A DNA stretch of 64,000 nucleotides. Source: Escherichia phage vB_EcoM_G17. Both the position numbers and the translations under genes were made by a program. Location of the stretch: the sequence record MK327931.1, one strand, 5' to 3'. The notes below the pieces were generated by a model. The model saw only the letters and a list, made by a program, of their open reading frames with translations, ran no database searches and was not told the DNA's origin. Shown in pieces: positions 1 to 64,000 of this stretch (position 1 is the stretch's first letter; every line of letters starts with the position of its first letter).

Positions 1-152
1 AGGTTACCCGCCCTTTAGCCCCCTACGCATTTTGCCATAGTCCAATCCCTTTTATTTCAAAAAAGTCAAGGGATTACCTATGCATTTTTTTAACGCATAA
101 TTTTAAAAACGCCTTGACTTTTTTCTGAATCAGTACTAGATCCCTTTACGCA

Positions 153-362
153 TTAATCCTTCGTTACGCTAACGATTATCTGTGTATCCCCGTAGTCCTG
201 CCATACTTCCACGCCATCGGTCGCCCTGGTTAGTCGTGCTGTCATCTGCTTAATGGTCTTAGGCTTTAGTGGAACCTGTTGCAGTACTGTACGCATAGCA
301 TCATTGACGTTATCATGTACGCCTGCAATAGTACCTAGAACGCTGTATACTGTATAGAACAT
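153..362 (-). CDS. hypothetical protein (69 aa)
   Basis: Track ORF; ATG at 362 preceded by SD AGGAGGG with 8 nt spacer on minus strand. Confidence 0.55.
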   Translation of the reverse strand: MFYTVYSVLGTIAGVHDNVNDAMRTVLQQVPLKPKTIKQMTARLTRATDGVEVWQDYGDTQIIVSVTKD

Positions 363-430
363 ATGTATGCCCTCCTGATATAGTTAAGGCCGCTACAAGG
401 CGGCCTATGATGTTTGGTGATGTGTAACGC

Positions 431-832
431 TTACAGTCCTAAGATAGTGCGTGCTTCGTTACGTTCCGTACACAGCTGCATGATGTGAGCAAGTAAGTCC
501 TTGCTAATGTATCCGGTGTTCATAGCTTCACGAATAGATACATCATACGCACCGAACCCCGTGCGAACGATACGCACATCATTCAGGTTAGTATTATAGA
601 TACCGCCGAGATCAACGGCTTCGAATACTACATCAACAGAATATTCATTGTTGCCATCGTGGAAGTTTTCCAGTGCAATAGTATTGGATACCGCCCAACG
701 TTTGCAGTTTCCAATGATGCGGCACTGTTCCGGTTGGATAGTACCATTACTTACAGCGTACTCCAGTGCATCTTTACCAAAAGTCCGAGCCAGTACTAAA
801 ACGTCAGCGAAGGAATTGATTGAGAAGGTCAT
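431..832 (-). CDS. hypothetical protein (133 aa)
   Basis: Track ORF 431..865 trimmed to internal ATG at 832, which has AAGGAG SD; upstream consensus promoter plus hairpin. Confidence 0.6.
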   Translation of the reverse strand: MTFSINSFADVLVLARTFGKDALEYAVSNGTIQPEQCRIIGNCKRWAVSNTIALENFHDGNNEYSVDVVFEAVDLGGIYNTNLNDVRIVRTGFGAYDVSIREAMNTGYISKDLLAHIMQLCTERNEARTILGL

Positions 833-921
833 GATAAAACTCCTTAATTTAGGAGGGAGAACCATTTCCCCCTCTCTATGTAAAACATTATACTTGATTC
901 TAAGTACTATGCAAGTACTTT

Positions 922-1254
922 TTACATTTTAATACCTGGATTCAGGTAGCGGTGAGATCCATATTCTGGATCGGTTTCGGTCCAGTACTGTAAATCGATA
1001 GTACCTTTCGCGTTAATCTTGTCTACCAGCTTATTCATCTTAGTGTATACTACGTCAGCATCGATGCGTTTAAAGCCAGTAGCTTTAGTGAAGTAGTAGT
1101 GATTTGCTTCACTATCATTAAGGATATACCGAGCACCGTTTGCAGTCTGTGCGATAATGATTGAGTATTCTACTTCCCGATCCAGACCGTCGATGAATAC
1201 AGATGAAACATTGGTACGGATGAAAGCTTTAACGATAGCGATTGAAGTACTCAT
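922..1254 (-). CDS. hypothetical protein (110 aa)
   Basis: Track ORF; SD AGGAGA 6 nt upstream; TTGACA promoter upstream. Confidence 0.6.
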   Translation of the reverse strand: MSTSIAIVKAFIRTNVSSVFIDGLDREVEYSIIIAQTANGARYILNDSEANHYYFTKATGFKRIDADVVYTKMNKLVDKINAKGTIDLQYWTETDPEYGSHRYLNPGIKM

Positions 1255-1500
1255 TTTGAATCTCCTAACTTTGTGGGCCGTCGCACCATTGCCGCCCTAC
1301 GAGATACATTATTGCAGTACTGATATACTTTGTCAATACTTTTTTTATTAATAGTTTTCACCCCACCAGCAGATAGTTACTCACCGTTATTAACTATATA
1401 TTTTAGATACACTCCTGCACCCAGTGGGCTAGTTTTTGTCTATGCGTATATAATAGCAAAGGGACTGACCGGAGTCAATCCCTTTTTTTATTCTTTTTTG

Positions 1501-1701
1501 TTAGATGATTCTCCAATCTTCTACGATCATGGTAAGATAACGGACCATCGATTCAAGTGATTCGAATTCCCGATAGTCTGCCGCTCCACCAGCGGTACAA
1601 GTACAGCCGATTAAACCATTTTGTAATTCCTTAATCTGTACATCGATAAGGTTGGCTTTAGCTTCTTTCAGTACTTCAACCAGGGCGATAGCGATAGACA
1701 T
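1501..1701 (-). CDS. hypothetical protein (66 aa)
   Basis: Track ORF; GGAG SD; promoter/hairpin module upstream. Confidence 0.55.
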   Translation of the reverse strand: MSIAIALVEVLKEAKANLIDVQIKELQNGLIGCTCTAGGAADYREFESLESMVRYLTMIVEDWRII

Positions 1702-1790
1702 AATGTTTTACTCCAAACTATTGACGGGAGAACTATTCCCCCGCTCTATGTAAAACATTATACATTACTGGTTAGTACTGTCAAATAGTT

Positions 1791-2048
1791 TTATGAAATA
1801 TCTTCGATGTAGTCGGCCCATTTCATTTTTTCAGTACTGTCAATGGCTACCGGATTATTTGGATCAAACCATTCACCATTCCCGCAATACATACCCACGG
1901 CAACGGTTTTATATCCATCCTGTGCAGTACTCCACGACATAGCACGATAGATATGGCCTTTAACTGGTTGCAATACTGGTAATGTTTTATGGTCTTCTAC
2001 GTAGGCCATAGCTTGAGGATTTACCCGATATTGTGTGAACTGTTCCAT
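1791..2048 (-). CDS. hypothetical protein (85 aa)
   Basis: Track ORF in early-gene series. Confidence 0.55.
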   Translation of the reverse strand: MEQFTQYRVNPQAMAYVEDHKTLPVLQPVKGHIYRAMSWSTAQDGYKTVAVGMYCGNGEWFDPNNPVAIDSTEKMKWADYIEDIS

Positions 2049-61915: not shown

Positions 61916-62280
61916 TGAATATCACCCCAACGGAAACCTTTCATATAATTCAAATTCACCTCAACTAGTTCATGTGTTTTTGTACACCAAATGGAGAGAG
62001 TTTTTGTAACATCACCAGGTTCAGATTCATAATTCACACAATAACCTTCAATGCGTAGAGTTTTGTTAGTCCAATGTTCCCACTCAATCCAAATTTCATT
62101 TGGATAATAAACCATATCTTCTTTGAACGTATGGAATTGATCCATTGGTAAATGACCTTTAACTTCAATTACTTCAGCACTTCGAGCCAGTTTTTCAAGC
62201 TTGTACTTTATTTCAGCAAGATATTCTTCATCATTCAGACGAGTGAATAAATCTGTTGCACGGGTTGTATCAAGGCTCAT
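61912..62280 (-). CDS. hypothetical protein (122 aa)
   Basis: Track ORF. Confidence 0.55.
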   Translation of the reverse strand: MSLDTTRATDLFTRLNDEEYLAEIKYKLEKLARSAEVIEVKGHLPMDQFHTFKEDMVYYPNEIWIEWEHWTNKTLRIEGYCVNYESEPGDVTKTLSIWCTKTHELVEVNLNYMKGFRWGDIQ

Positions 62281-62528
62281 TGTTGTACTCCATTAATCAC
62301 TGAAGTGTTGATTCGTGTTTTTCCGCTAGTGTATCCAGTACTGGTGTTTGCATTAGGACAATAAACTGTATACAACGTTGCACCAGCACCTTCCTGTTGC
62401 ATACGATAAATCTTACATCCTGCTTCTTTTAATTCAGTAGGGAGTTCAAAATCACTTGTGCGTTCTTTGGTTGAAGCATCACATGCAGTGAGTAAAAATG
62501 CGACGAGTACTGCTACAATGTATTTCAT
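62277..62528 (-). CDS. putative lipoprotein (83 aa)
   Basis: MKYIVAVLVAFLLTAC: lipobox-like LTAC. Confidence 0.55.
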   Translation of the reverse strand: MKYIVAVLVAFLLTACDASTKERTSDFELPTELKEAGCKIYRMQQEGAGATLYTVYCPNANTSTGYTSGKTRINTSVINGVQQ

Positions 62529-62836
62529 TAACGAACCTCCACTTCTTGAGAAAGAGCATGAGTCAGTGCATTTGAGTTCGAACCATTCATTTCACGCTGA
62601 CATACAAACATAATGGCATCTTGTACTGAACCTGCGATTTCATACTCACGACCTTCTGGATCAGTTACCAGATGTTCAACGATACAACCACCTCTCAGTA
62701 CAGAAGCACCAGTACTTACACTAATTCTGTAACCTAAGAAATCAAACTGCATACATGCGTCAGTAGGTTTCATCCAATAACCGCTGTTTTGATTCAAATC
62801 GATGATTACAAAACCTTGAGTGTTAGTTTGAAACAT
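62528..62836 (-). CDS. hypothetical protein (102 aa)
   Basis: Track ORF; consensus promoter upstream (about 62900-62960). Confidence 0.55.
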   Translation of the reverse strand: MFQTNTQGFVIIDLNQNSGYWMKPTDACMQFDFLGYRISVSTGASVLRGGCIVEHLVTDPEGREYEIAGSVQDAIMFVCQREMNGSNSNALTHALSQEVEVR

Positions 62837-62954
62837 AGTTAATTCCTCATTTAATTTAAAAGGGCGGGAACGCAGTGACGAGTACGATTATGCTGTCTTT
62901 CCTTTCACTGCATTCCCTTTGATATAAACATTATACTGCTATTATTCAGTACTG

Positions 62955-63233
62955 TCAATCGATATAAGTACCTTTTTTAACATCACAGACTTCTTCCATC
63001 CAATGTGGATTTTCGTTTTTATCAGTGAAGATTTGTTCTGCTTCTTCTTTTGTTTCAGCTAGGACAATACGATCCCCTTCATCCAAATCACGGATACGAT
63101 ACACTTTCAGTTCTTGTTTCTTCTCAAGGATATTACACAGTTCACGTGCTTTTTCTTCATCGCACTTCCCTTCATTAGCATAAAACCAAATTGCTTTTTT
63201 AATAAGGTCACGTTCTTCTTTAGAAAAAGACAT
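62955..63233 (-). CDS. hypothetical protein (92 aa)
   Basis: Track ORF 62955..63248 trimmed to MSFSKEE (AGGAAA SD); consensus promoter upstream. Confidence 0.55.
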   Translation of the reverse strand: MSFSKEERDLIKKAIWFYANEGKCDEEKARELCNILEKKQELKVYRIRDLDEGDRIVLAETKEEAEQIFTDKNENPHWMEEVCDVKKGTYID

Positions 63234-63403
63234 AATATTTCCTATCATTTGTTAAAGTGGATTTCGTTTGATATAAACATTATACAGTACTGATATCTTC
63301 TGTCAAGTATTAATCACCAAAAATCATCATATACCCAAAGCAAGCAACACAGATGACTAAAACTAACAATACCAACGATAGCCTCTAACATCATTTTATA
63401 TCC

Positions 63404-63622
63404 TTAATCGATAATTTTATATTCACGATGACCATAGAAGCCAGCTTCAAGGATGCGATTACCATCAGCATCTTCCAAGTCCCAACCACGGGATGTTTCG
63501 GCAATAATAGTCATGATGTGACCTCTTGGGAAAATTCCACTCAGAGTGGATACATCCTCAAGTAATTGAACTTTCTTTCCAACATTGGAATTCGGTTTAA
63601 ACATTTTATGGCCCTTATTCAT
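63404..63622 (-). CDS. hypothetical protein (72 aa)
   Basis: Track ORF; start overlaps upstream stop (ATGAATAA). Confidence 0.5.
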   Translation of the reverse strand: MNKGHKMFKPNSNVGKKVQLLEDVSTLSGIFPRGHIMTIIAETSRGWDLEDADGNRILEAGFYGHREYKIID

Positions 63623-63797
63623 TGATCACATCAAGTACTTTGTCCAGCTTTTTACCAATACTTTCCTTTGGTTTCTCACCATTCTGGAATACATTAGTAC
63701 TGCAATACTCAGGACGCGTATTAGGAAACTTCTCGTTCATCCAGGAGTGACCGTAAACACCCAGCATGATGCCAACGATAAGAATGATAATTTGCAT
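63615..63797 (-). CDS. small membrane protein (60 aa)
   Basis: MQIIILIVGIMLGVYG hydrophobic N-terminus; AGAGGAAA SD. Confidence 0.5.
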   Translation of the reverse strand: MQIIILIVGIMLGVYGHSWMNEKFPNTRPEYCSTNVFQNGEKPKESIGKKLDKVLDVINE

Positions 63798-64000
63798 GAT
63801 AATTTCCTCTGATTAAATGTTAGTAGTATAGTACTTGATTTCGTTTTGAATTGCAAGTTCTATTTGTTTATTGAAAAGAATTCCAAACTCTTTAATTGAT
63901 TCACAATCGAATTCAATAGAAAAAGTATACTCTGGTACACGTACATTGTCAATACCCAAATACTCTTTTATGTAAATTTTAATGAGTTTACATAGTGCAG

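Follow-up and report, generated by a model that had tools for sequence, protein, structure and literature searches.

The palindromic hexamer AGTACT as a genome-wide word of RaK2-like jumbo phages: abundance, distribution and candidate readers

The palindromic hexamer AGTACT is the most frequent hexamer in a 64,000-nucleotide (nt) stretch of Escherichia phage vB_EcoM_G17 (MK327931.1), hereafter the window, and among the described systems it is nearest in pattern to HIP1 (GCGATCGC) of cyanobacteria. HIP1 too is an over-represented palindrome that occurs in all reading frames and in non-coding DNA, is selected and has copies that turn over, and its function is debated. However, HIP1 is an 8-mer of cellular genomes and is linked to cognate methyltransferases, whereas AGTACT is a 6-mer enriched only in a phage lineage, rare in the host, placed in fixed promoter slots and accompanied by a zone of polar half-sites, and no cognate methyltransferase was identified for it. 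In logic, the nearest systems are Chi (GCTGGTGG), KOPS (GGGNAGGG) and the DNA uptake signals (USS/DUS). There, as for AGTACT, density and not position is selected; each word is read by a specific machine (RecBCD, FtsK and an uptake receptor, respectively), and directional processes bring an orientation bias, comparable to the blocks of TGTACT or AGTACA described below. These words are nevertheless asymmetric throughout, whereas AGTACT is palindromic over ~95% of the genome.

In the mechanism that we propose, the closest precedents are the primase sites of phages T7 (5'-GTC-3' core; GGGTC, TGGTC, GTGTC) and T4 (GTT/GCT), which combine a strand-specific trinucleotide core, a cryptic 3' base, extended productive sites and a phage-encoded specificity. 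The likeness extends to the phage itself, which encodes a gp61/DnaG-type primase, gp322. However, none of the known primase sites is palindromic, enriched 9-fold or excluded from one strand over kilobases. None of these systems fits AGTACT as a family, and we found no precedent for its conserved promoter slots or for the AGT-free tract associated with it.

Abundance, selection and distribution

The window is 100% identical to positions 15778-79777 of Escherichia phage Sharanji (OR545507.1), a 350,079-bp Asteriusvirus and a PBECO4/121Q-like member of the RaK2-like jumbo phages. All genome-wide figures and genome coordinates given here are those of the complete Sharanji genome, and window coordinates are those of the 64,000-bp stretch. 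AGTACT occurs 282 times in the window, or 4.4 per kb. Base composition predicts 21.7 copies and a first-order Markov model 21.8, and 100 dinucleotide-preserving shuffles of the window gave 20.6±4.4 copies with a maximum of 33. Formal counting therefore bears out the strong over-representation claimed in a sequence-only reading of this DNA, and the ten copies which that reading had located by eye in the first 1.8 kb are indeed there (132, 283, 792, 903, 914, 984, 1246, 1316, 1670 and 1774), its coordinates being 0-9 nt off. Higher-order Markov models give larger expectations (107 for M3 and 229 for M4), because the sub-words AGTAC and GTACT are inflated by the motif itself. Genome-wide, AGTACT is the commonest hexamer, with 903 copies and an observed/expected ratio (O/E) of 9.0; the next non-overlapping words reach an O/E of only ~6, on tiny counts.

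The genomic copies populate every context: 369 are in frame as AGT-ACT, 145 as xAG-TAC-Txx and 228 as xxA-GTA-CTx, and 159 are intergenic, with an intergenic density twice that of coding DNA (4.8 vs 2.35 per kb). A density sustained across coding and non-coding DNA had been asserted from the letters alone, and it holds. A word that is many-fold over expectation, genome-wide, in all coding frames and in non-coding DNA is what defines a HIP1-type element. The bases next to the hexamer are not random either. C stands at -1 in 132 and G at +1 in 128 of the window sites, and the extended form CAGTACTG accounts for 64 of the 282 (199 in the genome vs 4.4 expected). This C(-1)/G(+1) preference holds whatever the reading frame, and between genes as well; orienting the sites by the sense strand reveals no asymmetry in it. 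Across four genera the hexamer core does not vary, whereas the C/G flank preference does, being strong in Asteriusvirus and RaK2 alone and weak or absent in GAP32, CBB and BF. In window coordinates, the word is distributed as follows.

1..64000, unstranded: dispersed AGTACT, 282 copies, preferred extended form (C>A/T>>G)AGTACT(G>A/T>>C)
132..21000, unstranded: highest-density AGTACT zone, 135 sites, 6.4/kb, with small early genes on the minus strand

Codon usage and composition had been named in advance as what might undo the claim of enrichment, and they do not account for it. Indeed, 744 coding sites are observed genome-wide, whereas shuffling synonymous codons within genes left 217.6±12.5 (z = 42). 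Ser-Thr dipeptides are encoded as AGT-ACT in 52% of cases, vs 15% expected, and the dipeptides themselves are in excess (Ser-Thr 708 vs 481 expected; Val-Leu 751 vs 555), while Thr-Ser and Leu-Val are not. The phage also encodes a tRNA-Ser with the unusual anticodon ACU, the exact cognate of AGU, and a tRNA-Thr(UGU) (genome 95470-95561 and 93711-93784, outside the window), alongside a tRNA adenosine deaminase, a set that fits the heavy AGU-ACU usage.

Conservation was measured against fEgEco12 over window 43001..64000, where the two phages are 86% identical over 15.6 kb. Aligned AGTACT copies are intact in 40/53 and 40/47 cases (75-85%), as compared with 48% of all hexamer windows. The ratio of observed sites to the synonymous-shuffle expectation lies between 3.1 and 4.0 in all genome regions except positions 1-15.8 kb. 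Given this uniform ratio, the higher density of window 1-21000 (6.4/kb vs 2.5-4/kb in the remainder) reflects weaker protein constraint together with promoters, and not a local pressure. Moreover, the sites are spaced more evenly than a Poisson process would place them (coefficient of variation 0.77-0.88 vs 0.98±0.09 in six sub-regions), and the largest AGTACT gaps are shorter than in the Poisson simulation in 6/6 regions. The sole spacing peak, at 20 bp, comes from promoters holding two sites, and helical periodicity or arrays were rejected on this ground. A repeat family or mobile element was rejected as well, since for 810/902 genome sites the flanks resemble those of no other site (~90% unique sequence) and the promoter subfamily alone is repeated. 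The one-mismatch neighbours of AGTACT are mildly enriched (O/E 1.2-2.2), with the exception of AGGACT/AGTCCT at 0.54; that they are not depleted argues against conversion of the Vsr/HIP1 type.

The excess is shared by four enterobacterial RaK2-like genera, including genomes without detectable nucleotide similarity, and AGTACT is the top hexamer in the samples of RaK2, GAP32, CBB, BF and fEgEco12. The counts below come from sampled sequence of each phage.

RaK2: AGTACT 119 vs 12 expected; GCGC 0
GAP32: AGTACT 253 vs 14 expected; GCGC 0
CBB: AGTACT 266 vs 15 expected; GCGC 0
Serratia phage BF: AGTACT 106 vs 8.4 expected; GCGC 0
fEgEco12: AGTACT 52 vs 6 expected; GCGC 0
PA5oct (Pseudomonas): AGTACT 2 vs 7.5 expected; GCGC 72
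T4: AGTACT 8 vs 5.2 expected; GCGC 29
Aeromonas phage 65: AGTACT 0 vs 4.7 expected; GCGC 15

Between orthologues of Sharanji and RaK2, only 15 sites are common out of 66 and 79, respectively, and at conserved Ser-Thr dipeptides the two phages use AGTACT nearly independently of each other. With the excess present in both, density is thus kept while positions turn over. Phage muut, a Justusliebigvirus isolated on MG1655 like Sharanji, has 2 AGTACT in 30.6 kb where 7 are expected, and both lie within one segment that it has in common with Sharanji.

6850..7358, unstranded: segment common to Sharanji and muut, 510 bp, 93% identity, with both muut AGTACT inside

A 50-kb sample of E. coli K-12 contains 3 copies (0.06/kb), so that the density in the phage is 40- to 100-fold higher. 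According to muut, T4 and the host sample, the trait follows the phage lineage and not the host, and the reader of the word is therefore probably encoded by the phage.

The premise that phages deplete palindromes is also correct for this genome, where avoidance is extreme. In the 350 kb, about 22 palindromic hexamers never occur, among them CCATGG, TGGCCA, GCATGC, CTGCAG, GGTACC and GGATCC, and GCGC is likewise absent (179 expected genome-wide; 6.8 GCGC per kb in the host), while GTGCAC, CACGTG and ACGCGT are not avoided. Every RaK2-like sample combines the absence of GCGC with the AGTACT excess, and no outgroup does. We found no published description of the AGTACT enrichment in the Sharanji, CBB, RaK2 and fEgEco12 papers, in a jumbo-phage comparative survey or by full-text searches.

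The step from enrichment to function taken in the sequence-only reading is thus supported by selection beyond codon usage, conservation above background, even spacing and persistence in four genera. We consider it very probable that AGTACT is a positively selected, genome-wide, cis-acting word of the enterobacterial RaK2-like jumbo phages, with a phage-encoded reader, needed at roughly even intervals while its positions are free to turn over.

Promoter slots and the polar half-site zone

Both of the special arrangements of the word are best described in relation to the terminal repeat. The direct terminal repeat of Sharanji is 20,668 bp (~20.7 kb) according to PhageTerm (PMC11895373), and that of fEgEco12, positions 1-20993 (PMC13070987), aligns with the window from ~21000 down to 1. 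From this alignment, window ~1-21000 appears to correspond to the terminal repeat, with which the densest AGTACT zone would coincide. The physical genome end then probably lies near window 20-21 kb, and early transcription in the terminal-repeat region would run inward from that end.

Promoter-like sites were taken as sigma70-like matches to TTGNNN-N16-18-TATAAT on the minus strand of the window (n=41). AGTACT occupies one or both of two fixed slots in 30 of the 41, and 11/41 have it in neither. In slot 1 (18/41) the hexamer abuts the -35 hexamer, always with an imperfect TTGCAn box (AAAagtacTTGCAn); in slot 2 (16/41) it stands at -19 to -14, mostly with a perfect TTGACA box (agtactGTATAAT). 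The sequence-only reading had placed AGTACT frequently inside promoter spacers, which is right for the 16 slot-2 promoters; the 18 of slot 1 abut the -35 box instead. Both slots are filled, 20 bp apart, in 4/41 promoters.

887..20309, minus strand: early promoters, 31 sigma70-like matches, 27 with AGTACT in a fixed slot
15586..15619, minus strand: example of a two-slot promoter, AagtactTGCAATTAGTTTTCagtactGTATAAT; same layout at 11227-11260, 11456-11489 and 14802-14835

The slots are kept in the relatives, with 9/18 promoters of GAP32 and 13/18 of CBB having the word at -19, and 11/18 and 12/18, respectively, at -41 to -39. A position fixed relative to the -35 and -10 boxes and retained in GAP32 and CBB is characteristic of an operator or promoter element, and the conserved two-slot layout looks like an operator arrangement. 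The promoter-slot copies nevertheless make up only 34 of the 282 window sites. The word CAAGTACTTT recurs in 17 window promoters, a subfamily of minus-strand sigma70-type early promoters. The early promoters also fall into two classes that are almost mutually exclusive, TTGCAn always having AGTAC fused upstream and TTGACA mostly having AGTACTG fused to the -10 box, which suggests two regulatory classes.

The second arrangement lies mostly to the left of the window. Two genome blocks, 370-8091 (block A) and 10537-15908 (block B), are essentially free of AGTACT, and the latter extends into the window.

Window 1..131, unstranded: right end of block B, the first AGTACT of the window being at 132

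The + strand of block A carries TGTACT 41 times (3.7 expected, all frames), AGTACA 0 times and AGTACT once, and that of block B carries AGTACA 11 times and TGTACT once. The orientation is thus opposite in the two blocks although the genes of both are on the minus strand; the blocks also differ in AT and GC skew. They are separated by a 2.4-kb island with 17 AGTACT (genome 8.1-10.5 kb), bracketed by strong minus-strand promoters. Moreover, the trinucleotide AGT itself has zero copies on the + strand of genome 444-8091, that is over 7,649 nt located 7.7-15.3 kb left of the window, where ~148 are expected (log10 P about -60); the runner-up among such trinucleotide-free runs genome-wide has a probability of ~1e-7. 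ACT/ACU is absent in all frames from the sense strand of gp002-gp019, and the edges of the tract fall within gp001 and gp020. In phage 121Q, at 90% identity, the matching AGT-free tract is 7,511 nt long (1444-8953 of the compared 121Q piece) with an identical left boundary, and 34/41 of the TGTACT sites of block A are kept. A leakier version of the tract exists in ph0011 (80% identity), and the polar zone was not seen in the sampled parts of GAP32, CBB, RaK2 and BF. Since the assembly was made from Illumina reads (SPAdes) and the zone is conserved in 121Q and ph0011, it is not a sequencing or base-calling artefact.

Some process therefore reads a trinucleotide within the motif on one strand only, and a copy left intact on a single strand can do the work of the hexamer. 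Close to the terminal repeat, one strand requires the word and the other excludes it, the two roles being exchanged across the island. Such polar blocks suggest that the word is read strand-wise. An asymmetric word held in a single orientation over long distances is also known from the EcoP15I sites of phage T7, in which all CAGCAG copies have one orientation. However, the T7 case is the whole-genome avoidance of a host Type III enzyme, whereas here the oriented word is enriched 11-fold, is confined to 15 kb, and flips.

Candidate readers of AGTACT

The functions listed for AGTACT in the sequence-only reading fare unequally. A binding, modifying or nicking protein may act on the word; a recombination-stimulating motif is less likely, since the true Chi is itself ~12-fold enriched; and no evidence of a packaging signal was found. 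Overall, the earlier interpretation is partly supported: that the motif is functional agrees with our results, but the list of candidate functions was a wide one, and the strand-wise reading suggested by the polar half-sites was absent from it. As to Chi, a hotspot of that kind is an asymmetric, oriented word, whereas AGTACT is palindromic over most of the genome. The E. coli Chi octamer has 29 copies in the genome vs ~2.5 expected, and nine co-oriented CCACCAGC are on the + strand of the terminal-repeat region (window 1363, 1586, 3163, 5062, 7411, 8679, 9392, 13594 and 20064). With the genuine Chi separately enriched, AGTACT is not simply the Chi of this phage. We rank a replication enzyme such as a primase first, a symmetric DNA-binding protein second, and methylation or nicking third.

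Our tentative preference, drawn from the patterns in the DNA, is that the word may be read strand-wise as 5'-WGTACT-3' by a phage replication or recombination enzyme, with the primase gp322 as the favoured candidate. The palindrome would then be the cheapest way to place WGTACT on both strands together. ACT would be the core template trinucleotide, with the T as the cryptic 3' base, and AGTACT the site at which a 5-nt primer (pppGUACU) is specified in full, a hexamer being what five specified positions and one cryptic base add up to. Dense, even sites on both strands would permit lagging-strand priming whichever the fork direction in a 350-kb genome, and within the 15-kb zone that borders the terminal repeat on its inner side only one strand could be primed. 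More speculatively, the phage could write a strand-specific replication "grammar", in which AGTACT is a palindromic start site every few hundred bases, and one-strand words together with AGT exclusion set the strand that is primed, hence the direction or mode of replication near the genome end.

The candidate gp322 matches PHROG_47 "DNA primase" (E = 3.6e-31) and adjoins the DnaB-like helicase gp321. Strand-wise reading through a 3-nt core is a hallmark of DnaG-type primases. These recognise three template nucleotides, of which the 3' one is cryptic, their primers measure 4, 5 or 11 nt, and the productive sites of T7 primase are the core extended to a pentamer (PMC2910064). It is the combination of strand-wise reading, a 3-nt core and a primase of the phage's own that leads us to place a primase or a related replication enzyme first. 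Several observations weigh against this preference. The known primase sites of T7 are only 1.0-1.9-fold enriched in T7, which offers no precedent for a 9-fold excess. Outside the polar zone, the B-GTACT variants are ~1.6-2.2-fold enriched vs 9-fold for the palindrome; since the palindrome so far exceeds its one-strand variants, the first A or the symmetry itself must matter. Priming does not account for the two promoter slots, which are conserved in both Asteriusvirus and Mimasvirus; the copies there would be a second use of the word and are better understood as an operator. The AGT-free tract is ACT-free on the sense strand of its genes, as an explanation at the RNA level predicts. Furthermore, the polarity implies either converging forks, if the core is ACT, or an unusual pyrimidine-start primer, if it is AGT. 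Finally, the polar zone was seen only in Asteriusvirus, the corresponding regions of GAP32 and CBB, on the inner side of the terminal repeat, having none.

The promoter slots are best explained by the second reading, which we regard as doubtful: a phage-encoded symmetric (dimeric) double-stranded DNA-binding protein would use AGTACT as an identity tag of phage DNA or organise the nucleoid with it, and would also act on it as an operator of early promoters, for instance to shut off early transcription. TF1 of phage SPO1 and p6 of phi29, each encoded by its phage, coat the phage DNA and are repressors of early promoters as well; they show that a phage protein with a preference for phage DNA can bind genome-wide and act at early promoters. 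However, TF1 recognises DNA containing hydroxymethyluracil and p6 recognises bendability, and neither reads a hexamer. A symmetric protein is consistent with a palindrome whose flank preferences are symmetric and independent of frame, with the fixed slots in 30/41 promoter-like sites, four of them doubled 20 bp apart and the layout kept in GAP32 and CBB, with the 40- to 100-fold contrast in density between phage and host, and with the lineage-specific enrichment. Nevertheless, no candidate protein was found, and in GAP32, CBB and BF the strict hexamer has little flank preference, unlike typical long operators. A regulator, moreover, need not have even spacing or uniform genome-wide pressure. 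This reading is at its worst with the polar blocks: it leaves unexplained the co-oriented half-palindromes present at equal density, and block B is without a trinucleotide constraint.

We find unlikely the third reading, in which a phage enzyme of the restriction-modification type acts at AGTACT, either as a methyltransferase (providing a self-mark or a MutH-like strand signal) or as a nickase (making T5-like single-strand interruptions, or places where clamp or recombination proteins could enter). Type II enzymes classically recognise strict 6-bp palindromes, and AGTACT is such a palindrome, with a core that does not vary between the four genera and a flank preference that is weak or absent in GAP32, CBB and BF. 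The even spacing would suit a requirement that no point lie more than ~1 kb from a site, as GATC provides for MutH, and the polar half-sites could lead to strand-specific nicking or hemimethylation. The phages do encode methyltransferases, gp251 and gp542, but neither is assignable to AGTACT. The first is a small DNMT3-like C5 methyltransferase with a short target-recognition domain, probably CpG-specific; RaK2 DNA carries 5-methylcytosine at CpG (PMC3622015), which is consistent with gp251 and does not implicate AGTACT, because the hexamer contains no CpG. The second is of the Dam family; its CBB orthologue may act on RNA, as suggested by Iyer et al. (PMC7824862).

Two further candidates were rejected. 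The product gp548 (segment L008 13333-14181), called a methyltransferase in the Sharanji paper, has no methyltransferase features and no functional support from Pfam, PDB or PHROG, and such support is equally lacking for window 48380-48760, whose CRJP21 orthologue is labelled "restriction enzyme". No ScaI-like gene is annotated. Moreover, AGTA(mC)T would presumably be a target for McrBC in the MG1655 host, the one-mismatch neighbours show neither depletion nor a Vsr-type conversion signature, and the total exclusion of AGT is broader than a hexamer enzyme needs. Virion DNA of fEgEco12 was cut as predicted by ten restriction enzymes, ScaI not among them (PMC13070987), which indicates that the DNA has no double-strand cuts and is not grossly modified.

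The AGT-free strand of block A is the template strand, so that the mRNAs of gp002-gp019 are without ACU in all frames, and this is what an RNA-level signal would predict. An endoribonuclease of phage or host, RegB-like or of the mRNA-interferase kind, would then read AGUACU or an ACU core in transcripts, and the ACU-free tract would be an immune operon. Three-nucleotide specificity is typical of mRNA interferases, MazF cutting at ACA, and the ACA-less mRNAs that escape MazF are the nearest analogue of a 7.65-kb ACT-free sense strand, in that the absence of a trinucleotide gives immunity to a nuclease. In this manner, an ACU-free operon may be a natural "single-protein-production" device, surviving an ACU-specific RNase that the phage deploys; we know of no such RNase in this phage system. 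We nevertheless hold a signal in RNA to be improbable. The edges of the tract lie inside gp001 and gp020, and the neighbouring block has the opposite polarity with the same direction of transcription, unlike the MazF case. The variant enriched in the tract puts the intact word on the antisense strand, the flank preferences are symmetric relative to transcription, and the fixed promoter sites stand upstream of transcription starts.

Two explanations without a dedicated phage reader are more improbable still. In the first, AGTACT would be created by a non-adaptive mutational or gene-conversion drive, as proposed for cyanobacterial HIP1 with its methyltransferase and repair. The HIP1-like abundance of a short palindrome in all frames, coding and non-coding, speaks for it. 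However, the near-cognates, save AGGACT/AGTCCT, are mildly enriched (O/E 1.2-2.2) and not depleted, the spacing is more even than random, the promoter slots are kept across genera, and a symmetric drive would not yield blocks of co-oriented half-sites. In the second, the copies would be sites for a host factor, through binding, titration or decoy, an example being SlmA, whose binding site GTGAGTACTCAC has an AGTACT core. All enriched phages do infect Enterobacterales, but muut and T4, on the same host, are without the enrichment. For SlmA in particular, the G at -1 and C at +1 that it needs, within GTG...CAC arms, are the most disfavoured flanks (G at -1 in 3-9% of sites), and GAGTACTC occurs 0 times in the window. 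Finally, an artefact of composition, codon usage or a repeat family, for which one could cite that AGT and ACT are favoured codons and that the 17 promoters mentioned above share one word, is negligible in view of the Markov models, the dinucleotide and synonymous shuffles, the population of three frames and intergenic DNA, the unique flanks of most sites and the excess in genomes without nucleotide similarity.

Other features of the window and significance for the phage group

Beyond the early genes, the window contains the presumed genome end and an array of paralogous genes.

19041..25039, unstranded: ORF-poor region (ORF, open reading frame), 43 AGTACT, 7.2/kb, largely ORF-free over 6 kb, presumed genome end
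25040..39077, plus strand: RCC1-like paralogue array, 12 tandem genes, 37 AGTACT, 2.6/kb, ~8x chance

The ORF-poor region contains several families of dispersed 30-75-nt repeats and a 16-bp tandem array of ~5 copies (window 19784-19865) that is without the GACGTC sites of the genome. AGTACT is also most tightly clustered there, with 5 sites within 200 bp at window 19943; autoregulatory clusters of sites were considered and rejected, as no obvious regulator gene adjoins this one. The RCC1-repeat-like paralogues each have ~380 aa and are on the strand opposite to that of the neighbouring genes.

Small early genes at window 2767-2961, 6580-7358, 17615-17909 and 18283-18591 are 80-93% identical in nucleotide sequence to genes of 135-155 kb coliphages, namely Justusliebigvirus, Phapecoctavirus and rV5-like phages, which are otherwise unrelated. 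Such identities indicate a recent horizontal exchange of these predicted genes; several of the matching records are labelled "Campylobacter phage", probably by mistake. Stem-loop and promoter cassettes (AAAGGGTTGACTTCGGTCAGCCCTTTTTGCTATAAT), with the -35 box within the stem, were seen on the minus strand at window 43884-43919, 45298-45333, 46580-46615 and 57194-57229, and also at ~51085-51125. Phages of Serratia, Yersinia, Erwinia, Vibrio and Aeromonas carry such cassettes at 89-100% identity, and the cassettes resemble the PeSL mobile regulatory cassettes of T4-type phages.

More than 80% of the genes in this phage group are without known function. A selected hexamer, conserved and up to 18-fold enriched across four genera whose phages have 350-kb genomes, indicates a protein-DNA system with sequence specificity, of which we found no earlier description. 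The system is accessible: ScaI and Eco255I share this hexamer as their recognition site, E. coli K-12 supports growth of the phages, and built-in controls are available in the polar zone and the AGT-free tract. With AGTACT 40-100x denser than in the host and GCGC absent, the word may explain discrimination between self and host in a phage that has neither modified DNA nor a nucleus-like shell. The organisation of replication or early transcription on a very large linear genome with 20-kb terminal repeats is another matter on which it could throw light. AGTACT density together with GCGC absence is a simple signature of the clade in metagenomes and, within these genomes, flags recently imported DNA, and the recoding rules that it implies are relevant to engineering these phages for therapy.

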